In this document: positions 1 through 35,574 of the stretch, in pieces
Position numbering within the stretch: the first letter of the stretch is position 1
Layout: each line of letters starts with the position of its first letter
Virus record (IMG/VR): IMGVR_UViG_3300045912_000157
Location: 1 to 35,574 of that record
Strand: one strand, 5' to 3'
Source: a virus
Length of the DNA: 35,574 bases
The notes under the pieces: model-generated
The model's database searches: none
Told to the model about the DNA's origin: nothing
The model's input: the letters and a program-made list of their open reading frames with translations, nothing else
Position numbers and translations under genes: made by a program

Positions 1-127
1 CCAGCTCTTCCGTTGGACACTGTTCCAGTGTCAGATTGAAGAACTCCGATAGCGTTTTCAGTCAGATCTTGCCCATAAGTTCCTGTCTGATGAGAGGCTC
101 CCGTTCCAGAAACAAAAGACGTAAAAA
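1..127. repeat. Terminal direct repeat, copy 1 (identical to 35448-35574); signature of a circularly closed contig
   Basis: Read directly: 1-127 (ccagctcttccgttggacac...aaaagacgtaaaaa) recurs base-for-base at 35448-35574. A minus-strand ORF is continuous across the join. Confidence 0.95.
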
Positions 128-494
128 AACTTGTTGCAGATCCGCCTACAAAGTCATCAAAAATCTGAGAAAATCGGTCTGGGTCAGTTCTTTGAATGTC
201 TTTGACTCGGACTTTGAAAAAATCTCCGGAAGAAACATTTCTCAAATATAATTCATCTGCGATTCTTAATTGCGACAATGGGATTTGTGTTGCGCCCGTG
301 ATCTCGGCCTGAATTGCCGCAACGGCGTCAGCGTCAGTATAACTCAAGCCGCTCTCGAGGTCTTTTACAACTCCGGCAGAATCTTGTCTCGTCAGACGAT
401 TGCCGTTCGATGAATCTAACCCCAAATAATGGTCACCAGCTTGTGGGTTTGGCGTTATTGGAAAAGGTCTATTGCCGACGTAAATTACTGCCAT
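1..494 (-). CDS. 5' part of a wrap-around gene (ATG at 494). The full gene is 494..1 joined to 35447..34961, 981 nt (326 codons plus stop). Fibre-cluster protein with a C-terminal jelly-roll (ConA/LamG-like) domain.
   Basis: Hand translation of the minus strand from 494 gives MAVIYVGNRPFPITPNPQAGDHYLGLDSSNGNRL...TENAIGVLQSDTGTVSNGRAG with no stop down to base 1. The last residues are the same as the start of track ORF 34961..35467 (its M is an internal GTG). Confidence 0.8.
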   Translation of the reverse strand, partial: MAVIYVGNRPFPITPNPQAGDHYLGLDSSNGNRLTRQDSAGVVKDLESGLSYTDADAVAAIQAEITGATQIPLSQLRIADELYLRNVSSGDFFKVRVKDIQRTDPDRFSQIFDDFVGGSATSFFTSFVSGTGASHQTGTYGQDLTENAIGVLQSDTGTVSNGRA

Positions 495-6410: not shown

Positions 6411-7124
6411 TTAATTATCGGCGGGCTCGCGCAAAAGTTGATTGATTTTATCGGCTCCGGACACAATTTCTACGCCTTGGCGCGTCACGTCACGGGCTTC
6501 ATCAGACGTTGGTGTGTAATTGAAGTCATACTCCGCGATCGGAGCTCCCCCAATAGCGTCTGGAAACGCGATTTTAAGAGCCTGGCTGCGCGCCCTTCGC
6601 ATCAGCATGATCTTTGGGTACGTTTGCCAGGGGGACTTCTTGTCGAGCAATCCTGCGCGTTTGGCTTCGTCTAACGTGAACGTCGCCTCAACCATTGGCA
6701 ACGCATTGCGTTTAAGCCTGCAGACCCCAGCCCAAGGTTCTGCCGTAAGATTTTTATTTTCCAAACAAATTTTGTTGTAATCTTTGTCGATCACGAATTC
6801 CTCTATGTGCTCCAATTGACGAGTTTGATATGCCAATTTCAGCGGCAACTCCCCCCAGATGCTCGGTTGCCCGTTTACGACGGCAATGTTCCTCAAGCCT
6901 GACAGCGGTTCCAATCCCAACTCGCGCGCAAACTGCATTCCGACCAGGACTTTTTCGGCGCTGTCGAACGCTTTGGGCACCAACCCGCTTTTATGAAAAA
7001 TTTGTGCAATTCTATATTGACCCTCAATGTTGTTTGCTGCAAACTTTCCCTCGTCGTTTACCTCGACCGGAGATGCGGCTTTTCTCGCTGTGGGCTGCGT
7101 CTCTGTATTTTCAACTTCACTCAT
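6411..7124 (-). CDS. recT: RecT-family single-strand annealing protein
   Basis: 237 aa. RecT-like blocks: FARELGLEPLSGLRNIAVVNGQPSIWG, TLDEAKRAGLL.KKSPWQTYPKIMLMRRARSQALKIAFPDAIGG. Confidence 0.8.
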   Translation of the reverse strand: MSEVENTETQPTARKAASPVEVNDEGKFAANNIEGQYRIAQIFHKSGLVPKAFDSAEKVLVGMQFARELGLEPLSGLRNIAVVNGQPSIWGELPLKLAYQTRQLEHIEEFVIDKDYNKICLENKNLTAEPWAGVCRLKRNALPMVEATFTLDEAKRAGLLDKKSPWQTYPKIMLMRRARSQALKIAFPDAIGGAPIAEYDFNYTPTSDEARDVTRQGVEIVSGADKINQLLREPADN

Positions 7125-7336
7125 ATTCTCTCCTTTTTTGTTTCTATTTGTGGTTGTTTGTCTTCAGAAATCTTAATCATTTGATCCGCCATTGCGTAGG
7201 CATCGACAATAACGCTCAGATCAGGCTTTCTTCCTTGTGCCAAAAGCCCTTGAGCCAATCGCGACGCAATCTCGTCACGTCTCGACAGAGTTTTGCCGAC
7301 TTTCGCTAAGTCCGCATTCTCGATCATCATTTTCAT
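7121..7336 (-). CDS. Hypothetical small early protein
   Basis: 71 aa. Strong SD (GAGGAGG, 7 nt, ATG). ATGA-type junction with the RecT gene. Confidence 0.55.
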   Translation of the reverse strand: MKMMIENADLAKVGKTLSRRDEIASRLAQGLLAQGRKPDLSVIVDAYAMADQMIKISEDKQPQIETKKERI

Positions 7337-7667
7337 TCAAGTCCTCCTCGACTTTGCATTTGATGCAGCATCTTTTCTTCACGTCAGCAAAATTTCGCCA
7401 CAAATGATTGCAAGTAAACTCTCCCTTGTCGAACATAATATACATTTGCAGTTCGTGAATAAGTTGCTCCTGATATTTGCGAGGGAAAACTTTCGCTAAT
7501 TCGTGAACTTTCTGCATTGGCATACGCCGCAGAACCTCAAAATACATCGATCGCCGCGCGATTGATTCTTTAAATTCTGCGTAAGTAATCCAAGGATCAA
7601 GAAGGTCTTTGGTCTCTGAGAAAACTGAGCGTCCGACTGTTCTCAAGTGTGAAAGATTCGCGTCCAT
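7275..7667 (-). CDS. Hypothetical early protein with a C-terminal Cys/His cluster
   Basis: 130 aa. SD GGAG lies 7 nt before the ATG at 7667. Contains FTCNHLW...KKRCCIKCK. Overlaps both neighbours (71 and 62 nt). Confidence 0.5.
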   Translation of the reverse strand: MDANLSHLRTVGRSVFSETKDLLDPWITYAEFKESIARRSMYFEVLRRMPMQKVHELAKVFPRKYQEQLIHELQMYIMFDKGEFTCNHLWRNFADVKKRCCIKCKVEEDLNENDDRECGLSESRQNSVET

Positions 7668-7890
7668 TTACTTTCTCCATTACGTCGCGCATGAATTTCA
7701 CCTGCGCATTTAATTCGTCAATTCTATTTCTTAGATGCATGATCTCAAGGTTTTTTTCTTCCAGCTTCTTCCCATAACGTTGCGTTATTTCTTCGTGCTG
7801 CAAGCTCTCTTCAATGCGTTTTGCAATGTTATTGTGTCCCATGTCGTAAAGAAATTTCACGACTAGATTTGTTTTTTCTCCTGCTTTCAT
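7597..7890 (-). CDS. Hypothetical coiled-coil early protein
   Basis: 97 aa with heptad-like KKLEEKNLEIMHLRNRIDELNAQVKFMRDVMEK. Confidence 0.5.
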   Translation of the reverse strand: MKAGEKTNLVVKFLYDMGHNNIAKRIEESLQHEEITQRYGKKLEEKNLEIMHLRNRIDELNAQVKFMRDVMEKVNGRESFTLENSRTLSFLRDQRPS

Positions 7891-7973
7891 TTTGCCCCTC
7901 TATTTGTAAAAATCTTTTTAATTATTTGTTGTTTGGTATTGGACCGATCTGTTTGTCGTATTGTTCCTTAAAT

Positions 7974-8960
7974 TCAACCATAACTTTGAACCAAAAATCC
8001 AAATTCAGGCTTCGCGTGTTTTATCTCAATACCGGTTTTCTTTTGATAAATTGATTTGATTCTATCTCGGGCTACTGAAACTGCAATTCTGGAAACATCG
8101 ACACCCAGCCACTTTCTTTCAAGTTTCTCGGCAACAGCAACCGTTGTGCCGCCACCGGAGAAGAAATCAGCAACGAGATCTCCTGGCTTTGAAAGCGCAT
8201 TGATGATCTTAGAAAGCAGTTCCTCTGGTTTCTGGGTTGGATAACCAATTCGTTCTTTGCTAATATTTAGAACAGCTTTAACTTCCCAAGTATCATCAGG
8301 AAGAATATCTGCATAATATCTTCCTTGTTCATCCACTTGAGGGCTGAAGAATGGCTTCTCATAATAAATACGTTCCTTAATGCAATTATAAAAATATTTT
8401 TTTGGATCTTTACTGTACCAATATAAGTTGTCATGCTTATGGCCAAATCTTCTTTTACTAGCTCCGCCAGTTCGATAAGACCAAATAATCTCATTCTGAA
8501 AATTATCTGGACCGAACATTTTGTCTAACTCAATCTTTACATAATGACAGGCGTGTTTGTCCAAGTGAACAACTAAATTTCCAGTTTGTTTGAGAAGCCG
8601 TTTCATTTCCCAAAGTCTTGCATTCATCCAGGCGAGGTAAGTAGGCAAGCCTCCATCCCAAATGTCACTAAATGTGCGAACCTCGTCGTCGTCACCGAAA
8701 ATACAATTATAGTTGCGACCAGAGAAGAAGGGGGGATCTATATAGATTAAATCAATAGACTCCGAAGGCAGTGATCGCATCACTGAAAGATTATCACCCC
8801 AAATCAGTCTATTTTCGATTTTACTAACAGTACCATCCCAATTGAACTCTTCTGTAGTAATAAAAGGGCGCTCTTCCGTCTTAAATGTTTCTCTAAAATC
8901 TTTACCGTCCCAGCCGATTGGCTTGTGAAAATCTGACAAAAATAAGTCGTCACACCTCAC
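7974..8960 (-). CDS. Orphan DNA methyltransferase (N6-adenine/N4-cytosine, beta-class order: DPPF motif before the AdoMet motif)
   Basis: Motif IV IDLIYIDPPFFSG lies upstream of motif I LVADFFSGGGTTVAVAEKLERKWLGVDVS. No restriction partner is nearby. I place the start at GTG 8960 (GTGA overlap with the upstream mini-ORF). The track start, TTG 9008, is the alternative. Confidence 0.85.
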   Translation of the reverse strand: MRCDDLFLSDFHKPIGWDGKDFRETFKTEERPFITTEEFNWDGTVSKIENRLIWGDNLSVMRSLPSESIDLIYIDPPFFSGRNYNCIFGDDDEVRTFSDIWDGGLPTYLAWMNARLWEMKRLLKQTGNLVVHLDKHACHYVKIELDKMFGPDNFQNEIIWSYRTGGASKRRFGHKHDNLYWYSKDPKKYFYNCIKERIYYEKPFFSPQVDEQGRYYADILPDDTWEVKAVLNISKERIGYPTQKPEELLSKIINALSKPGDLVADFFSGGGTTVAVAEKLERKWLGVDVSRIAVSVARDRIKSIYQKKTGIEIKHAKPEFGFLVQSYG

Positions 8961-9070
8961 TTCACCCCCCAAAGTTTTAAAAAGATAACCAAGTCCCACG
9001 CCAAACAAACTGCAAGAATAATATTAAGTAAGAGTGAGAGTGAGACAACGATCCACATCTTGTCTTTCAT
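8957..9070 (-). CDS. 37-aa single-pass membrane peptide (below the ORF-track cutoff)
   Basis: Hand translation: MKDKMWIVVSLSLLLNIILAVCLAWDLVIFLKLWGVK. SD AGGTG lies 4-5 nt upstream. Its TGA overlaps the GTG of the methyltransferase. Confidence 0.45.
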   Translation of the reverse strand: MKDKMWIVVSLSLLLNIILAVCLAWDLVIFLKLWGVK

Positions 9071-9131
9071 TTCACACCTGACCTGCTTCTACTCCCGCAA
9101 CCATCTCTTCCAATTTTAAAATTGTTGATAC

Positions 9132-9461
9132 TTAATACTCACAAGCGCGCATGATCGTGAGAACCCGATTTGGTTTTACTTCAAGCGGGTCAACTCCGTA
9201 TTCAAAATTTTCATCCAAATAGTCTATTTTCCAAAAATAATCTACGCCGTCCAGAGTCACACGCCCAAAATCTTTTTCGCCATGCGGATCGTTTTCTTCT
9301 GTCCACAAATTAAATCCTCGCACCTCGGTTATCAACCGCTCCCGAGTTTCGTCGTCTAAGGCCGCAACCATATCGCTAAACACAACTCGATTTCGCGATG
9401 AACTTATTAATGTCATTCGAAAAATGTTGTTCTCCGCTGCTACTGTTTCGATCGTTCTCAT
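9132..9461 (-). CDS. DUF3768-family protein
   Basis: DPHGEKDFGRVTLDGVDYFWKIDYLDENFEYGVDPLEVKPNRVLTIMRACEY matches the DUF3768 signature as I remember it (DP.GE.DFG...KIDYYD...RVLTIML..EY). Start moved to ATG 9461 (ATGA overlap with the upstream ORF). Confidence 0.7.
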   Translation of the reverse strand: MRTIETVAAENNIFRMTLISSSRNRVVFSDMVAALDDETRERLITEVRGFNLWTEENDPHGEKDFGRVTLDGVDYFWKIDYLDENFEYGVDPLEVKPNRVLTIMRACEY

Positions 9462-9679
9462 TTTAATTCCTCCACCTCGACCGTGCATCTCACACGATAC
9501 TTTTTGTTATTCAATTCCACGTCTTTGCTTGAGTTCATAAACAAAGCAGGTCGCGATGAACTTCCTCGAAAGAAAAACACACGAGCAAATTTTGCGTTGA
9601 TTTGTTTCCCTTCAGGCAAAGCTAAGGACACTTCGGCTCGAAGAAACACGTTCTCGGTTGAATCAGTTCGCGACAACAT
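9458..9679 (-). CDS. Hypothetical early protein
   Basis: 73 aa. Translationally coupled (ATGA) to the DUF3768 gene. Confidence 0.5.
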   Translation of the reverse strand: MLSRTDSTENVFLRAEVSLALPEGKQINAKFARVFFFRGSSSRPALFMNSSKDVELNNKKYRVRCTVEVEELK

Positions 9680-11468: not shown

Positions 11469-12239
11469 TCACACCTCTCGCTGTGTCAGGGCTTCGATCG
11501 TTTCCTGAATTGAGTTCTGTTTTTCGAATTGTTTTACCTTGGACGCCGTAATTGTCACGCCTCTTTTCCATTGCGAATGAAGACTTTCTGCGTCTTTTAA
11601 GCACAGTCCGATAGCGTGAGAGTTTTTTAAATAAAACCCGTCGTTGTGCGTCAAATAAAATTTCACAACTTCAACAGCTTCGGCTCCTAACCGTTTGCCC
11701 AATTGTGACACTTGAGCGTTTATGCGACCATTTCTCACAGGCTCGACGCCGTAGCGCAGCGTATAGGCGTCAAAATAGCTTTGCCAGATTTTGCGATTGA
11801 GATTTTTTTCTTCTGACTGATGTTCAAAAGAAGAAACAGGCTTTTGTGCAGACGAAACATTTTGGGGTGCTGTTAAATTCTTTTCTTTTCTTTTCTTTTC
11901 TATTTCTTTCTTTTCTATTCTATTTATAAAGGATTCAGTTTTTTCTATTGTAAGTAGTTGAAATGATTGGAGCCGATTGAGATAATTGCGCAACGATTGC
12001 GCGCCAATTCGCATATATTTTGGTAGCATTTGCGCGCTGATTTCAAACTCATTTGAAACTATATCCGCGCAGATTGATAAGCAATAAAGATATAATTGAA
12101 ACTCAATTGGCTTTAATTTTGAAATTTTTTCATCGTTAAAAATGCGTTTAGAAACCATAAAATGGGTATGACCTTTTTTAGATTTCGAATTGTGCAAAAA
12201 GAATTTGTCGATTTTTACATGATACACTTGTTTAGACAT
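11469..12239 (-). CDS. Replication-initiator (lambda O-like) candidate: N-terminal winged-helix domain, Lys/Glu linker, C-terminal domain
   Basis: 256 aa and the first gene of the early operon. The C-terminal block IWQSYFDAYTLRYGVEPVRNGRINAQVSQLGKRLGAEAVEVVKFYLTHND.FYLKNSHAIGLCLKDAESLHSQWKRG recalls prophage O-like proteins of proteobacteria. Ori-like repeats lie inside the gene. Confidence 0.5.
   Translation of the reverse strand: MSKQVYHVKIDKFFLHNSKSKKGHTHFMVSKRIFNDEKISKLKPIEFQLYLYCLSICADIVSNEFEISAQMLPKYMRIGAQSLRNYLNRLQSFQLLTIEKTESFINRIEKKEIEKKRKEKNLTAPQNVSSAQKPVSSFEHQSEEKNLNRKIWQSYFDAYTLRYGVEPVRNGRINAQVSQLGKRLGAEAVEVVKFYLTHNDGFYLKNSHAIGLCLKDAESLHSQWKRGVTITASKVKQFEKQNSIQETIEALTQREV
11878..12012. 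repeat. Ori-like region inside the initiator gene: phased (G/A)ATTG(C/G) repeats plus a ~50-nt homopyrimidine/AT-rich tract with (CTTTT)x4
   Basis: ATTG/ATTC cores start at 11966, 11976, 11985, 11996 and 12007 (10-11 bp spacing), and TTGCGCAA is a palindrome. The tract 11878-11927 reads ttcttttcttttcttttcttttctatttctttcttttctattctatttat. Confidence 0.35.
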
Positions 12240-12348
12240 GAATCTTCCCCCAAAAAATTCAACTTTTCCGTTGCAAAAACTCTGAATTTCGGAGATAAAT
12301 CACGAAGTTCGTTGGTCGTTGCAACGGGCCGGTCGAAAGACCGAACAG

Positions 12349-12376
12349 AGCCGGTTCACGCCGGCTTTTGTTTTAT
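12349..12376 (+). terminator. Plus-strand intrinsic-terminator-like hairpin in the early leader region (possible antisense/small RNA 3' end)
   Basis: AGCCGG-ttcacg-CCGGCT followed by TTTGTTTTAT on the plus strand. On the minus strand no U-tract follows the hairpin. Confidence 0.4.
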
Positions 12377-12541
12377 AAAAAACATCCCTTAAAAAAGAAA
12401 CAAAATAATTCGGTCTAGATCAAATAAATTGTAAAAACTTCATAAGCGTTTGAAATCATTATATATTATGTAGTTTCCACAATCATTGAAAAATGCGATT
12501 TTATAATTTATTCTTGAAGAAACTCAGCTGAGGCAGTTTTG

Positions 12542-12561
12542 GCCCCCCTTAACTGGGGGGC
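12542..12561 (-). terminator. GC-rich hairpin just downstream of the accessory operon (possible terminator or RNA-stabilising 3' hairpin)
   Basis: GCCCCCC-ttaact-GGGGGGC, 11 nt after the stop at 12573. It lacks a U-tract on the minus strand; a T-rich run follows on the plus strand. Confidence 0.35.
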
Positions 12562-12572
12562 TTGTGGTATTT

Positions 12573-13433
12573 TCATTTTTTCCATTTTTCATCAATCAAC
12601 TTGGGAACAGCATACTTCCAAGTGATGCTATGATGCAATCTGCTATTTATCCAGCCCATCAGACCAATTTTACAGCAGCTTGGTTCTGCGATGACGCTAT
12701 AAAATGATTTCACATAAGTGCCATACAATTTGTAAGCGTCTGTATTTCCGCCTGAATTGCTTTGCGTCAAGAGCTGAACTATTGCAACATCTGTGATTTG
12801 AAAAAATAATTTCCCTATTTTTCCTTGTGACAAATATGTATTTACGTCATCGTTCATTCTTCCAATAAATACAATATCGTCTTTTGAATTTTGGTTTACT
12901 TTGAAAACAAATGTGTTCATTGCCTTTCTTTTATAAGTATTATTAAATACCGATGGAGCTCCACCAATAAAGTCACCAGCTTGAGCAAAGGCAATCGTAC
13001 AAACTTTTGTTTCATTTAAGCAATCTATTATTGAATCAAGAACAGTATCTAATTTTTTGATTATAATAGCTCTCAATATATTTCCATCAATTTTTCTGTA
13101 TGAGAATTGTGTATAGTCATCTTCGTATTCAAAAAAATAATCCAGACCGAGCGATCTTGCGATGTCATAACAGGCGTTTCTTGCGTAAACTATTACTTTA
13201 TTGCCCGCAAAATTATCCATTTTGTCAAATTTACCCTCATATTGTTTTTTGCTGAAAACAATAACTTCATCTCCATAATTCTGTTTATATTTATCTAAAG
13301 TTTTATCTTCATCGTCGCATATAATGAAAATTCTTCCAGTGTAACCTTGTCGGCGCAATGTTCTATATGTAATTACTCTGTCGGGTCTTCCGTGTGATAA
13401 AATAAAAACGGCATAATTATGTTTTTGTTGCAT
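12573..13433 (-). CDS. GT-A-like (DxD) transferase candidate, function unknown
   Basis: 286 aa. The N-terminal strand and loop AVFILSHGRPDRV, then IFIICDDEDK and FFEYEDDYTQF acidic motifs, are laid out as in GT-A nucleotide-sugar transferases. Overlaps the upstream gene by 17 nt. AT-rich. Confidence 0.45.
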   Translation of the reverse strand: MQQKHNYAVFILSHGRPDRVITYRTLRRQGYTGRIFIICDDEDKTLDKYKQNYGDEVIVFSKKQYEGKFDKMDNFAGNKVIVYARNACYDIARSLGLDYFFEYEDDYTQFSYRKIDGNILRAIIIKKLDTVLDSIIDCLNETKVCTIAFAQAGDFIGGAPSVFNNTYKRKAMNTFVFKVNQNSKDDIVFIGRMNDDVNTYLSQGKIGKLFFQITDVAIVQLLTQSNSGGNTDAYKLYGTYVKSFYSVIAEPSCCKIGLMGWINSRLHHSITWKYAVPKLIDEKWKK

Positions 13434-13830
13434 TTTTTTTCCTAAATTTTGCTTCGGTTTTTATTTTTGAACTACTATAGTCGTGATTTCTGTCGAGATA
13501 AAAAATTTCTTTATTTAATTTCTCGATTTCTTCTTTCATTTCCCATTTATGACCTTTGTGATCAGATCCAAGAAAATAAATATCATAATGAAGAGACAAA
13601 AACATATTTCGATCTCGATCTATGTTTTCGTATGGTATTACTTCATCAACCCATTTCACGGCTTTTAGTTGAATAAATCTTTCAAATATTGATTGCTGAG
13701 GATTTTTGTAAAGTGGCTTGCAATGAAGTCCGACAATAAGAAAATCGCAATTCTTCTTGGCTTGCTCTAATGATAGAATATGACCACTGTGCAAAATATC
13801 TGCGACCATCGGGAAAAAGCCTATTTTCAT
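13417..13830 (-). CDS. Cytidylyltransferase-like nucleotidyltransferase (TagD / glycerol-3-phosphate cytidylyltransferase-like)
   Basis: 137 aa. HxGH motif in VADILHSGHILSLEQAKKNCDFLIVGL, then WVDEVIPY and SSSKIK, colinear with TagD as I recall it (FDLLHWGHIKLLERAK...YVDEVIP...STTKIK). Confidence 0.8.
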   Translation of the reverse strand: MKIGFFPMVADILHSGHILSLEQAKKNCDFLIVGLHCKPLYKNPQQSIFERFIQLKAVKWVDEVIPYENIDRDRNMFLSLHYDIYFLGSDHKGHKWEMKEEIEKLNKEIFYLDRNHDYSSSKIKTEAKFRKKNATKT

Positions 13831-14738
13831 AAAGTATCCTCATCGTTTGTGTATGTATCGTTGTTTAAATAACTTTCGTTTAGTTGTTTTGAAAGTTTAA
13901 CAAAACCATTTTGAACAGCTTTATTAAAGTCGATAATTACCAATGCTGATTTTTCAAATAGTTCTTGAGTATTTTTATCAGAATGAGCGTAGTAATTTGC
14001 TATGTTTTCATAATTGAACACTATGTGTCTACTTGCTGCCATAAACAAAAATTGCTTTTCTTGTTCACTTAATGAACTTTGTTTTATCTGCTCACATAAC
14101 TCATTGTATTTAGTTAAATCTATTAAATCAGCAATGATCGGCTTATCTCCAGTTGGTTCGTAAATCGGAGCGGCGATTTTATTGCTGTAAAAATTTTTCT
14201 GTTCTTCGGTTAATGGCACTACTTGTTCTTCGTCATAATAGTCTGATTTTTCTCTCAAATGAGAATTAACCATGATTTTTTCGGGTATTTCAAATTTGAG
14301 ATTGTCGAAATTTACAAACGGAAGACATATTTGCTCATTTAAAAAATCAAAACTTATGTTTTGAATTCCCCGAATGAACTCTTCAGCACCGATCTGATCG
14401 AACGTTCCGTATTGAGAGGCCGCAGCCAAAACTTTTCTTTTAGCATGATCGATATTGTCAGCTTCTATGAAAACTACCGGAACCTGCGGAATTGAATATC
14501 CTTCTTCTTTCATTTTTTTTAGAGTCGAATATCTTTGATGACCGTCGATGATATAAATTTTTGCGTCTTCTGGGTTTTCCCAAACAAAAATCGAAAATGA
14601 AAACCCGTCTGCCAAAATCTCATTTTTGAGTTTTTGATAGTTTTCGTTTTGTAAAACTTTCAAGTCGCCTTGTAATGGAGTCATTAAGTCGATTGAAAGC
14701 GTATCTTTTGTTTTGACTGCAATTTTAATCGTTTCCAT
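13827..14738 (-). CDS. ParB/Srx N-terminal-fold protein with an uncharacterised C-terminal domain
   Basis: 303 aa. KIYIIDGHQRYSTL is the ParB-like nuclease-domain DGxxR motif. The C-terminal region has PIYEPTGDKP...FLFMAASRHIVFNYENIANYYAH...SALVIIDFNKAV. No methylase domain is fused. ATGA overlap with the cytidylyltransferase gene. Confidence 0.75.
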   Translation of the reverse strand: METIKIAVKTKDTLSIDLMTPLQGDLKVLQNENYQKLKNEILADGFSFSIFVWENPEDAKIYIIDGHQRYSTLKKMKEEGYSIPQVPVVFIEADNIDHAKRKVLAAASQYGTFDQIGAEEFIRGIQNISFDFLNEQICLPFVNFDNLKFEIPEKIMVNSHLREKSDYYDEEQVVPLTEEQKNFYSNKIAAPIYEPTGDKPIIADLIDLTKYNELCEQIKQSSLSEQEKQFLFMAASRHIVFNYENIANYYAHSDKNTQELFEKSALVIIDFNKAVQNGFVKLSKQLNESYLNNDTYTNDEDTL

Positions 14739-14830
14739 TTTGTATTCCTTTCAAAATCAAATCGAATTAACTTAATAATGGCAATATCAATTTGAAACAT
14801 CGACGGTTGAATTGATTTTTTTCATTGTGT

Positions 14831-14860
14831 TTGTCATAAAATTATCATAATATATATAAC
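14831..14860 (+). promoter_or_regulatory. Candidate sigma70-type promoter for the plus-strand small-gene operon
   Basis: TTGTCA (14831-14836), 18 nt, TATAAC (14855-14860); TATATA at 16-nt spacing is an alternative. A small palindrome ATTAT-C-ATAAT (14841-14851) lies in the spacer, and an inverted repeat ATCAATT-17 nt-AATTGAT (14786-14816) lies just upstream. Confidence 0.35.
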
Positions 14861-14969
14861 CGAGGTGAACGATAAGAACACATACGCAGAAAAGATTGAG
14901 CATTTAAAAAAATGAAATGTCAATGTTGGTTTTGCTTTCACAATCAATCGGATTGAAAGAGAGGAAAAA

Positions 14970-34960: not shown

Positions 34961-35574
34961 TTACCTTCCAGAAGTTCTTTCAATCACAAATTTCATCCAG
35001 TCGGTGTCCATGTTTCTTTGCGTTGCGCCGACTGTTTTTTCAATTTTAAATCCTGCGCCAAAGGGGTTTCCGCCGCCTGGTAAGTTTGGAGCGTTGATCG
35101 TGGCTACCAAAACGTCGTCAATATGGAACAATGCTTGTTGTCCGTTTTCAGACAACTCAACTCTATAAATGTGATAATCTAAATCAGGGCTGAATCCCGT
35201 GTCCACGGCTTGAATTTCTGTGCCCGCCACGCGCGAAACAGCTAAAAATCGACCGCCGTTTTGTAGATCGGTATATCTAAAATACATACCGTTTGTGCCT
35301 TCGCCGGTGACAGAAAACGAGTCAGTCAATCCGCATCTAAAAACAAAAGTCTCAGTCAAAGTTGAAAGCTGCTCGAGTGCGTGTCTTGCCTCATACACGA
35401 ATCTCGCTGCTCCAGCTCGTCCAATTAAGCCAGACACTGTTCCAAGACCAGCTCTTCCGTTGGACACTGTTCCAGTGTCAGATTGAAGAACTCCGATAGC
35501 GTTTTCAGTCAGATCTTGCCCATAAGTTCCTGTCTGATGAGAGGCTCCCGTTCCAGAAACAAAAGACGTAAAAA
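34961..35574 (-). CDS. 3' part of the wrap-around gene (see 1-494): C-terminal jelly-roll / ConA-LamG-like domain
   Basis: The frame stays open beyond the track's GTG at 35467 to the window edge, and 35448-35574 duplicates 1-127. The C-terminal pattern FVFRCGLTDSF..GMYFRY...FLAVSRVAGTEIQAVDTGF..DYHIYRVELSENGQQALFHIDDVLVATI...FKIEKTVGATQRNMDTDWMKFV is typical of a lectin/glucanase-type jelly roll. Confidence 0.7.
   Translation of the reverse strand, partial: FTSFVSGTGASHQTGTYGQDLTENAIGVLQSDTGTVSNGRAGLGTVSGLIGRAGAARFVYEARHALEQLSTLTETFVFRCGLTDSFSVTGEGTNGMYFRYTDLQNGGRFLAVSRVAGTEIQAVDTGFSPDLDYHIYRVELSENGQQALFHIDDVLVATINAPNLPGGGNPFGAGFKIEKTVGATQRNMDTDWMKFVIERTSGR
35448..35574. repeat. Terminal direct repeat, copy 2 (identical to 1-127)
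   Basis: See 1-127. Confidence 0.95.

Follow-up and report, generated by a model that had tools for sequence, protein, structure and literature searches.

Decorating DNA with sugars is one of the main ways in which phages escape restriction and CRISPR, and sugar-decorated DNA is in turn attacked by type IV restriction enzymes and by glycosylase-based defences. To our knowledge, every DNA-sugar route that is understood installs a 5-hydroxymethyl group first. The beta-glucosyl-HMC-alpha-glucosyltransferase of phages T2 and T6, a GT-A enzyme of the TAGT (TET-associated glycosyltransferase, PF20691) family of phage and kinetoplastid DNA-base glycosyltransferases, puts a second glucose on glucosyl-5hmC (PMC13216743, PMC13390438), and the 5mYOX-associated GT-A enzymes from metaviromes, which share this family and fold and resemble the base-J glucosyltransferase, glycosylate 5hmC (bioRxiv 10.1101/2023.12.21.572611). 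These enzymes obtain their 5hmC or glucosyl-5hmC from a dCMP hydroxymethylase, or from a C5-methylase plus a TET, encoded in the same genome. On contig 53, a cytidylyltransferase is essential, together with a bifunctional HAD/APH phosphatase-kinase and a GT-B DNA glycosyltransferase, for heptosyl-5hmC, and here too a C5-methylase and a TET are needed (bioRxiv 10.1101/2023.12.21.572611). ParB homologues with a nucleotide-binding and a C-terminal domain, and without a DNA-binding domain, activate phage DNA dioxygenases on dsDNA; in the 5mYOX176/ParB176 system (PNAS 2026) the ParB adjoins the DNA-modifying enzyme as its cognate-specific partner, and the genes often lie near glycosyltransferases and the terminase (PMC13229309). 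ParB-methyltransferase fusions (phrog_498; PMC12704722) couple a ParB/Srx module to an enzyme that methylates a canonical base. In animals, GREB1, a 1,949-aa cytoplasmic protein, carries a TAGT-related domain that O-GlcNAcylates ER-alpha (PMC7968844). Two recent surveys found most phage GT-A/TAGT genes to be 'solitary' and left them unexplained (288/753 TAGT-encoding phage genomes; ~65% of ~25,000 GT contigs).

The window, which is the whole stretch of 35,574 nucleotides analysed here, is a complete genome of 35.4 kb that carries a TAGT gene in a compact trio, with the following features:

12541..12562, no strand: GC-rich hairpin marking the cassette's 3' edge, 11 nt past the stop codon of TAGT
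12573..13433, minus strand: TAGT-family GT-A glycosyltransferase gene, 286 aa
13417..13830, minus strand: cytidylyltransferase-like nucleotidyltransferase gene, 137 aa
13827..14738, minus strand: ParB/Srx-like gene, 303 aa
14739..14969, no strand: AT-rich divergent intergenic region, 231 bp, 28% G+C

The initial annotation had described three overlapping minus-strand reading frames at 12573-14738, and this agrees both with the ORF coordinates, which give overlaps of 4 nt (13827-13830) and 17 nt (13417-13433), and with an independent gene caller, which called all three genes in each of four further assemblies of this phage. The peptides that it quoted (ADILHSGHILSLEQAKK, VDEVIPY, SSSKIK and IIDGHQR) all occur in the translations of the trio, and the 231-bp divergent spacer and the GC hairpin that it reported are present. 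The trio heads a leftward transcription unit, while the rightward unit consists of small regulator-like genes, one of them weakly Arc-like. Shuffled sequence gives promoter-like matches at least as often as 14739-14969, and we place the promoters by gene layout. The hairpin has 8 pairs, 7 of which are G-C; its T-tract is on the + strand side only, with the trio strand reading AAAACTGCC after the hairpin, and a canonical intrinsic terminator of the trio operon is therefore unsupported.

The trio has a G+C content of 32.6%, compared to 45.7% in the remaining genome, and lies ~7 sd below equal-sized segments elsewhere in the genome (mean 0.458, sd 0.019, minimum 0.398). GC3 is 0.26-0.29 in the trio genes versus 0.41-0.52 in the terminase, portal and capsid genes. 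The AT-richness noted before is thus real, and the low-GC block is wider than the trio, extending over ~11469-14969 and taking in a DnaD-like gene (0.372) and both intergenic regions. This composition, together with the different genomic position of the cassette in relatives, supports the suggestion that it was acquired as a unit. No near-identical relative of the region turned up by megablast among 50,697 phage records, and defence-system libraries, Rfam and tRNA scans gave no matches.

The 286-aa protein is a clear TAGT member. It matches PF20691 over profile positions 1-202 of 205 with 114.3 bits (cut-off 27.5, E 9.5e-33), and phrog_842 of PHROGs with 6.6e-61, so that what had been annotated as an unclassified GT-A protein now has a solid family assignment. 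The catalytic signature is intact (R16, D40-D41-x-D43, D104-D105-D106, N194-D195-D196, K242 and H267-H268), and R16, D104-D106 and N194-D196 vary little or not at all across 11 divergent members, one of them from a T4-like phage whose TAGT carries the same invariant residues. The AlphaFold model (pTM 0.70, confident for residues 1-150) retrieved the GT-A enzymes ColGalT1, GalS1, K4CP, SpsA, Fringe and SunS in Foldseek with probability ~1.0 and E of 1e-5 to 1e-3, and the GT-A/DxD reading of this protein thus withstood a structural comparison. The activity itself we infer from the family, the fold and the R/DxD/ED signature. With the T2/T6 and metaviromic enzymes it shares the invariant R, DxD, N-E/D-D, K and HH elements, and like them it is phage-encoded, soluble and basic (pI 9.0). 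We also considered a zinc site in the C-terminus (C253, C254 ... H267, H268); however, the Cys pair is unconserved in divergent members and only the HH is kept.

The 137-aa protein is a generic cytidylyl/adenylyltransferase by sequence, which presumably makes a nucleotide-activated donor. It matches PF01467 (48.4 bits, cut-off 21, E 1.4e-12) and passes the generic model TIGR00125 (47.1 bits, cut-off 27.7). The nearest solved structure is TagD (1COZ, 1.1e-12, full-length alignment), with HSGH and R..SSSKIK of the phage protein aligned to HWGH and RTEGISTTKIK of TagD. However, it reaches only 58.7 bits with the glycerol-3-phosphate cytidylyltransferase model (TagD, TIGR01518), whose equivalog cut-off is 165.4, and the heptose-1-phosphate adenylyltransferase model (HldE/RfaE domain II, TIGR02199) fares no better (49.9 bits, equivalog cut-off 181.5). 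Thus the cytidylyltransferase-like HxGH fold behind the earlier 'TagD-like' description holds, but the TagD label does not. Orthologues with 66-88% identity lie between the partner and TAGT genes in ~70 IMG/VR loci. Among non-redundant viral loci, a nucleotidyltransferase, with or without a fused phosphatase, occupies this position in ~55/138 (~40%), indicating that it is an optional insert; in relatives it is mostly fused to a histidine phosphatase. The neighbourhood of the Vibrio phage copy was uninformative about the donor pathway.

Two distinct parts make up the 303-aa protein. A divergent ParB/Srx domain of the nucleotide-binding type, with DGHQR as its motif, probably occupies residues ~30-130 and is followed by an acidic linker. 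This domain matches phrog_498 (8e-9) and phrog_1033 (2.9e-7), aligns to ParB-methylase fusions by tblastn (38% identity, 8e-12), and is tied to the ParB_N-type domains of relatives by a local jackhmmer search. Pfam ParB_N is unmatched, the GmrSD_N match (3.8e-4, 21 bits) is under its cut-off of 33.2, and the domain is modelled at low confidence. The ParB/Srx fold assigned previously can be kept as probable, in a divergent form, and the domain is most similar to the ParB/Srx module of the ParB-methyltransferase fusions. Residues ~184-296 form an acidic, helical and previously unnamed C-terminal domain, which we call the TAGT-partner domain. Its motif Y184..P191-I-Y193-E-P195..P200 includes an invariant, probably exposed Y-x-x-K-I-x-x-P-I-Y-E-P peptide before the folded core, which is helical with AASRH and ALVIIDF and was modelled as five helices with pLDDT 86-98 over residues ~190-260. 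The domain matches phrog_620 (8e-13) and has 131 word-indexed relatives, or 1,410 clusters at 50% identity in an exhaustive search; no PDB structure matched it in Foldseek at an E below 0.6, and a PDB sequence search gave nothing. In most family members it is fused to ParB/Srx domains, and it is also widespread on its own, as a protein of ~130 aa. The 303-aa protein has a net charge of -18 (pI 4.7) and no HTH, ParB dimerisation or other DNA-binding domain that we could detect, and there is no ParA-like gene among the annotated ORFs of the genome, which argues against a canonical partition ParB (ParABS).

The partner domain and the TAGT appear to form an obligate two-protein core. In 138/138 non-redundant viral loci the TAGT gene is next on the same strand after the partner domain, and annotated phages show the two genes overlapping or directly adjoining. 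The two proteins differ in charge in a complementary way, the partner having a median pI of 4.74 and the TAGT one of 8.96. All three families occur in the same order in ~55/138 of these loci, so that the proposed association of the trio survived a neighbourhood search. Direct neighbours are frequently DNA methylases. In annotated phages the pair mostly sits directly upstream of the terminase, beside packaging and structural genes, and a ParB-methylase fusion takes a similar pre-terminase position in Porphyromonas phages; the cassette of the window, in contrast, is in the early/replication region. The hosts include Proteobacteria, Firmicutes, Actinobacteria, Bacteroidota and Haloarchaea, with one archaeal virus among the loci. 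The pair (ynaK and its neighbour) is prophage-borne in 1,580/5,426 complete E. coli genomes (29%), and phages with isolate records, c5 and the ~190-kb Vibrio phages among them, carry it as well. The pair keeps 39-47% identity between phages whose hosts are Gram-negative, Gram-positive, actinobacterial or archaeal, and this universal host range argues for a universal substrate such as DNA.

These features match those of the 5mYOX-activating ParBs, which have the same domain architecture without a DNA-binding domain and lie next to their client, as the partner does in all 138 loci. The likeness is one of architecture; the client here is a glycosyltransferase and not a dioxygenase, and 5mYOX is absent from the genome. 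The earlier idea that the ParB-like protein chooses the target is not favoured by the evidence: the protein is strongly acidic, no HTH was detected in it, its conserved part is a TAGT-specific partner domain, and in the published precedent ParB activates a DNA-modifying enzyme rather than selecting its site (PMC13229309). Relative to the ParB-methyltransferase fusions, a ParB/Srx module is again coupled to a group-transfer enzyme, but here the enzyme is a separate polypeptide, there is a dedicated partner domain, and the group is predicted to be of glycosyl type. The T4-like TAGT that we examined has no partner-domain gene upstream, whereas for the window-type TAGT the partner is obligatory. 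The combination of a cytidylyltransferase with a phage DNA glycosyltransferase is not unprecedented, since contig 53 shows it experimentally. As there, a cytidylyltransferase-fold enzyme would be dedicated to the donor for a transferase of a DNA-modifying family, with a phosphatase in most relatives; unlike contig 53, the cassette uses a GT-A/TAGT enzyme, has no kinase and no acceptor-making enzyme, and the phosphatase of relatives is of the histidine-phosphatase family.

All ORFs of useful size were scanned with Pfam and/or PHROGs, including a 326-aa gene across the genome junction that we reconstructed. The complete genome yielded neither a TET/JBP nor a hydroxymethylase or C5-methylase, and no candidate ORF contains the HxD/E...H...R facial triad, with the caveat that Pfam misses 5-17% of phage 5mYOX contigs (PMC13229309). 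The statement in the initial annotation that there is no hydroxymethylase thus holds for the complete genome and extends to TET and C5-methylase. Likewise, neither the 51 recurrent neighbour clusters of the 138 loci nor the annotation of phage c5 includes an enzyme that makes a 5-hydroxymethyl-pyrimidine. As the genome makes no such base, classical 5hmC or 5hmU from an enzyme of the phage is excluded as the acceptor. It had been said that any DNA modification here would not be one of the described routes; the parts are in fact described ones, while their combination without a source of hydroxymethyl base is not.

We put at about even the chance that the trio glycosylates DNA, as a mobile and self-contained cassette that supplies its own donor and brings a ParB-type activator. 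In this mechanism the cytidylyltransferase-like enzyme would, judging from its family and precedent, condense an NTP with a sugar-1-phosphate or other phospho-alcohol to give a dedicated NDP-activated donor. In most relatives a fused histidine phosphatase would prepare the phosphate ester, and the window phage presumably uses a host phosphatase. The TAGT, as a metal-dependent DxD enzyme, would move the activated group to an acceptor, most probably the phage's own DNA. By analogy with the ParB-activated thymine dioxygenases, the ParB-like protein may bind the TAGT through its C-terminal domain and license its action on dsDNA, with the ParB/Srx nucleotide-binding-type module as the presumed switch. 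Because the cassette appears to head an early leftward operon just before the replication genes, new DNA could be decorated as it is synthesised and so be protected from host nucleases. The family and fold of the TAGT, its obligate ParB-linked partner and its DNA-acting relatives point to the phage's own DNA as the target. The usual place of the pair before the terminase, the frequent DNA methylase neighbours, the donor-supply precedent of contig 53 and the lack of membrane segments in the three proteins also speak for DNA. Against DNA glycosylation, no enzyme that could create the hydroxyl on which all characterised TAGT/JGT enzymes act was found in the genome, the TAGT-like GREB1 acts on protein (PMC7968844), and the ParB-like protein is very acidic, with no detected DNA-binding domain and weak evidence for its N-domain. 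An unlikely variant is that the pair attaches a special, phage-activated sugar directly to a canonical base or other DNA nucleophile with no hydroxymethylated precursor, the acidic ParB-linked partner opening or presenting the duplex. If true, this would be a new chemistry of DNA modification, shared by thousands of phages and by ynaK-type prophages that ~29% of sequenced E. coli carry.

In the main rival reading the sugar goes to a protein, which could be the partner, a protein of the host or one of the virion or packaging machinery; we regard this as improbable, if to be reckoned with. The ParB-like protein would in that case serve as substrate or adaptor, not as a DNA-directed activator, and the invariant Tyr of the PIYEP motif could be the site, as glycogenin glucosylates its own tyrosine. 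The invariant, probably exposed peptide of the partner fits this, as does its acidity, which makes it unlikely to bind DNA itself, and so do the usual position of the pair beside packaging and structural genes, the failure to find a hydroxymethyl-base source and the precedent of GREB1, which has a homologous GT domain (PMC7968844). GREB1 has no ParB partner. Against a protein target, all characterised phage TAGT-family enzymes act on DNA, and the partner is typically fused to ParB/Srx, a module of DNA transactions and DNA-modifying enzymes (PMC13229309, PMC12704722). Furthermore, the window cassette lies away from structural genes, and there is no candidate acceptor protein conserved across E. 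coli, Lactobacillus and Haloarcula hosts. If protein does prove to be the target, the pair would represent a widespread phage glycosylation system related to GREB1.

A TAGT without a cognate hydroxymethylase would also be explained if its substrate were foreign, namely the 5hmC, 5hmU or glucosyl-hmC of competing phages (superinfection exclusion) or a base modification supplied by the host. This idea has been raised before (bioRxiv 10.1101/2023.12.21.572611), the T2/T6 TAGT works on an already modified base (PMC13216743), and E. coli prophages carry the pair very often. We nevertheless think it distinctly improbable: none of the PADLOC defence models matched, isolate phages also carry the pair, a sugar on invader DNA is more likely to protect than to harm, and a pre-terminase or early-operon position fits self-modification. 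Decoration of an envelope glycan (lysogenic conversion or superinfection exclusion), which was among the targets proposed originally, seems to us highly improbable. In such a scheme the TagD-like enzyme would provide CDP-glycerol or another activated unit for the GT-A enzyme to attach to teichoic acid, LPS or capsule, in the manner of prophage TarP. TagD is the nearest solved structure to the nucleotidyltransferase, and published structure searches put phage GT-A DNA transferases near TarP (bioRxiv 10.1101/2023.12.21.572611), but the TagD equivalog cut-off is missed widely, the same pair spans hosts with unrelated envelopes, and its obligate partner is ParB-linked. Moreover, the three proteins contain no membrane segment (maximum 19-aa Kyte-Doolittle mean 1.3), and no flippase or Gtr-type partner was found in the genome.

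For DNA glycosylation by the cassette, ParB-type activation would extend from dioxygenases to glycosyltransferases, and a new acceptor chemistry would be implied. The orphan TAGT class gains a signature: an obligate partner domain, unnamed until now and mostly borne by a ParB/Srx protein, to which donor-making enzymes may be added. The Lactobacillus phages c5 and phi jlb1 and the E. coli ynaK prophages provide cultivable test cases; the NCBI pipeline labels the TAGT of the E. coli prophages 'GREB1-related protein'. A scan of cellular genomes returned only six distant MAG matches from five phyla, and the terminase is 34-39% identical to those of phages of many unrelated hosts.

The candidate modification cassette comprises three genes:

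12573-13433, minus strand: TAGT (TET-associated glycosyltransferase) gene, 286 aa
13417-13830, minus strand: nucleotidyltransferase gene, 137 aa
13827-14738, minus strand: ParB/Srx-like plus partner-domain gene, 303 aa

These minus-strand open reading frames are as the initial annotation described them, and an independent gene caller returned the identical trio on four further assemblies of this phage, obtained in separate sequencing runs. The coordinates reproduce the start/stop overlaps (4 nt and 17 nt), the cited peptide strings all occur in the three proteins, and the divergent spacer upstream measures 231 bp (14739-14969) up to the first rightward gene; from this spacer the trio heads a leftward unit that continues into the replication genes. 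The AT-richness first noted by hand count is strong, with a G+C of 0.326 versus 0.457 for the rest of the genome, where equal-sized windows have a standard deviation of 0.019 and a minimum of 0.398. GC3 is 0.26-0.29 in the trio versus 0.41-0.52 in the terminase, portal and capsid genes, and the low-GC block extends beyond the trio, from about 11469 to 14969. The claimed GC hairpin exists (12541-12562, 7 G-C pairs). Because its T-tract lies on the + strand side, we rejected it as a canonical intrinsic terminator of the trio. It is one of two hairpins, with 12347-12368, in the intergenic 333 bp that separate TAGT from the DnaD-like gene (12240-12572); both have T-tracts on the + strand, yet both flanking genes are on the - strand, and an Rfam search of the region gave 0 family matches.

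The two ends of the window (1-127 and 35448-35574) are identical direct repeats of 127 bp; the window is therefore a complete genome, circular or terminally redundant, with 35,447 bp of unique sequence. The phage is of siphovirus type and encodes small and large terminase, portal, protease, major capsid, connectors, major tail protein, tape measure and tail fibres, together with a CHAP endolysin, a RecT-like protein, a PDDEXK exonuclease, a DnaD-like loader and an N6/N4 DNA methylase. No close relatives were found among 50,697 deposited phage genomes. A 326-aa gene adjoining the tail-fibre genes (34961-35447 joined to 1-494, minus strand) had been missed in the ORF listing because it spans the genome junction; it matches nothing in Pfam or PHROGs and lacks a dioxygenase-type metal triad.

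By profile, the 286-aa protein is unambiguously a member of Pfam TAGT (PF20691; 114.3 bits versus a cut-off of 27.5), and it also matches phrog_842 'beta-glucosyl-HMC-alpha-glucosyltransferase' (6.6e-61). The GT-A assignment, for which modelling had been named beforehand as the test, held up, since the AlphaFold model (pTM 0.70; N-terminal 150 residues confident) matches GT-A glycosyltransferases with a probability of about 1.0. Residues R16, D104-D105-D106, N194-D195-D196, K242 and H267-H268 are invariant or nearly so in 11 divergent members, one of them the TAGT of a T4-like phage, and correspond to the R...DDD...ED(Y/F) motifs of phage GT-A DNA glycosyltransferases and the trypanosome base-J glucosyltransferase (bioRxiv 10.1101/2023.12.21.572611). 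Residues 227-282 are highly conserved yet of low confidence in the model, as would be expected if their folding required a partner or substrate. The 137-aa protein scores above the cut-offs of PF01467 and TIGR00125, as a cytidylyltransferase-fold nucleotidyltransferase. Of its earlier label, 'TagD-like cytidylyltransferase', the fold stands and the HSGH and R..SSSKIK motifs do align with TagD, but the protein falls far below the equivalog cut-offs of TagD and of HldE domain II.

Residues ~30-130 of the 303-aa protein resemble ParB/Srx-fold domains, foremost the ones that phages carry in fusion with DNA methylases (phrog_498, 8e-9; 38% identity to ParB-methylases of Porphyromonas phages); Pfam ParB_N is not matched, so the ParB call is retained only as probable superfamily membership. 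Residues ~184-296 form a domain named in no library, which we call the partner domain. A conserved peptide, Y-x-x-K-I-x-x-P-I-Y-E-P-x-x-x-K-P, opens this domain and leads into five helices with AASRH, YYAHS and ALVIIDF. The domain was modelled with pLDDT 86-98 over residues ~190-260, and no relative of it was detected in the PDB. At 50% identity the family resolves into 1,410 clusters. In nearly all of the 150 best hits the domain stands at the C-terminus. It occurs in two forms: alone, as a protein of ~130-190 aa, or preceded by an N-terminal extension of ~130-250 aa, which in the loci examined is a ParB-type domain.

Across the relatives, it is this C-terminal domain and not the ParB domain that constantly accompanies TAGT. 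The partner-domain gene overlaps or abuts the TAGT start in phages of E. coli, Salmonella, Lactobacillus, Vibrio, Nocardia, Porphyromonas and the archaeon Haloarcula, and in most annotated phages bearing the pair it lies directly upstream of the terminase genes. A scan of IMG/VR for the partner domain matched at least 600 stretches. When all fetched loci were passed through a local pipeline, the TAGT gene came next on the same strand in 138/138 non-redundant partner-domain ORFs. The architectures were as follows; half of the loci were picked for closeness to the window's TAGT, and the proportions are thus not population estimates:

ParB + partner, then TAGT: 60 non-redundant loci
partner alone, then TAGT: 17 non-redundant loci
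ParB + partner, then His-phosphatase::nucleotidyltransferase, then TAGT: 47 non-redundant loci, plus 2 variants
ParB + partner, then nucleotidyltransferase, then TAGT: 6 non-redundant loci including the window, plus 1 variant

The proposed check on co-occurrence of the three families thus shows that ParB + partner, nucleotidyltransferase (free or His-phosphatase-fused) and TAGT recur in this order among the 138 loci. Over all fetched loci, the partner domain is acidic throughout (median pI 4.74, n=171) and TAGT basic throughout (median pI 8.96, n=176), and these opposite charges, with the overlapping reading frames, point to a stoichiometric protein complex of the two. In E. coli the partner gene is ynaK, whose neighbour NCBI labels 'GREB1-related protein' (e.g. 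NZ_CP038791.1 3052607-3054323, prophage); of 5,426 complete E. coli genomes, 1,580 carry this pair, and we found no functional study of it in the literature. In Salmonella phage SPF_0923 the pair lies beside trkG. One fetched relative (among L105-L179) has the architecture 'CTD > TAGT > TAGT > TAGT > TAGT', in which the partner domain precedes four consecutive ORFs matching the TAGT profile, explicable either as tandem transferases or as a frameshifted gene. In contrast to the paired enzymes, the TAGT of the T4-like Aeromonas phage 65 (locus L180, 2680-3876) has no partner-domain gene upstream and carries an extra N-terminal extension of ~110 aa that is absent from partner-linked TAGTs.

The nucleotidyltransferase is optional. 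It is absent from all isolate phages with the pair except large Vibrio phages, which have a 36%-identical copy far from TAGT, and it occurs in about 70 metagenomic relatives at 66-88% identity. Most of these carry it with a fused N-terminal histidine-phosphatase domain (PF00300, 4.5e-38), which the window gene lacks and whose best, though sub-threshold, match is alpha-ribazole phosphatase. In other loci the third gene encodes a methylase of N6/N4 or Dam type, or else a radical SAM/SPASM enzyme. Examples from IMG/VR relatives are:

L041, 7049-8014: His-phosphatase::nucleotidyltransferase fusion
L059, 7031-8014: His-phosphatase::nucleotidyltransferase fusion
L090, 11219-12187: radical SAM/SPASM enzyme directly after partner + TAGT
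L091, 7915-8883: radical SAM/SPASM enzyme directly after partner + TAGT

Because the adjacent third genes differ between loci, the core pair appears to recruit varied third enzymes; the optional nucleotidyltransferase and its alternatives indicate that partner + TAGT is the core, which the accessory third gene would tune. A published precedent for an accessory cytidylyltransferase beside a phage glycosyltransferase is contig 53, where cytidylyltransferase, phosphatase/kinase and DNA glycosyltransferase are all needed for heptose on 5hmC (bioRxiv 10.1101/2023.12.21.572611). In 105 of 115 related loci the cassette has a lower G+C than its flanks (mean 5.6 points), and in relatives with terminase, portal and capsid like this phage's (L059) it lies before the terminase and not in the early region. 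Composition and changed position together support horizontal movement of the cassette as a unit, in line with the earlier suggestion that it was acquired as one.

The best-supported reading is that the trio could be a DNA-glycosylation cassette, in which our confidence stays near one half because the acceptor-making enzyme is missing, the main counter-argument. All characterised TAGT/JGT enzymes glycosylate the hydroxyl of 5hmC/5hmU, or a sugar already there (PMC13216743, PMC13390438). Across all ORFs of relevant size and the 326-aa junction gene, Pfam and/or PHROGs revealed no TET/JBP dioxygenase, thymidylate-synthase-type hydroxymethylase or C5-methylase, which extends the initial remark that there is no hydroxymethylase to the complete genome, and an HxD/E...H...R arrangement is absent from every unannotated ORF. 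The Pfam TET_JBP model misses 5-17% of phage contigs with 5mYOX, a TET/JBP-type dioxygenase (PMC13229309), and for this reason exclusion of a very divergent 5mYOX from the genome falls short of absolute. In Lactobacillus phage c5 (31.8 kb) the pair forms the first two genes after cos, and the annotation contains none of the same three enzyme types. Among 51 recurrent neighbour clusters (170-400 aa), no dioxygenase or thymidylate-synthase family was present among 25 listed of the 30 Pfam families matched.

If the trio does glycosylate DNA, the nucleotidyltransferase would produce an NDP-activated donor, TAGT would move the activated group onto DNA, and the ParB-linked partner would bind TAGT and license it on duplex DNA. 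The closest analogy for the partner is with phage thymine dioxygenases, which are activated specifically on dsDNA by cognate ParB homologues that combine a nucleotide-binding domain with a C-terminal one and lack a DNA-binding domain (PMC13229309). The initial annotation had the ParB-like protein choosing the target, which we do not favour, given the strong acidity of the 303-aa protein and the failure to detect a DNA-binding domain in it. The main rival is that TAGT glycosylates protein: GREB1, which is related to TAGT, has a protein as its substrate (PMC7968844), and the invariant PIYEP tyrosine of the partner could even be the acceptor. Pointing instead to DNA are the known chemistry of the TAGT family, fusion of the partner to a ParB/Srx domain, the occurrence of a ParB-methylase fusion at a comparable place ahead of the terminase in related Porphyromonas phages, the frequent DNA-methylase neighbours, a host range spanning bacterial phyla and archaea, and the lack of any membrane feature in the trio proteins. 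We rate it less likely that the trio acts on hydroxymethylated DNA of rival phages, and less likely still that it converts an envelope glycan.

The TAGT family, cytidylyltransferase-supplied donors and ParB activators of DNA-modifying enzymes are already described, and earlier work has tallied solitary TAGTs and orphan GT contigs without explaining them (PMC13216743; bioRxiv 10.1101/2023.12.21.572611). In the searchable literature we found no description of an obligate TAGT-partner domain, of its modular ParB fusion or of the recurrent His-phosphatase/nucleotidyltransferase insert. That the cassette conceals DNA modification chemistry independent of hydroxymethyl-pyrimidines seems to us unlikely, though the chance is a real one.

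Elsewhere in the genome, a second, milder AT-rich island at ~7000-9500 (G+C 0.39-0.41) contains a gene for a DUF3768 protein (9132-9488) and one for an N6/N4 DNA methyltransferase (7974-9008, GC3 0.345), perhaps a further DNA-modification gene of acquired origin. The gene for the 826-aa tail protein has on either side a gene for one of two glycine-rich paralogues (PF21722; 17539-18303 and 21564-22307) that resemble tail-fibre-assembly proteins.
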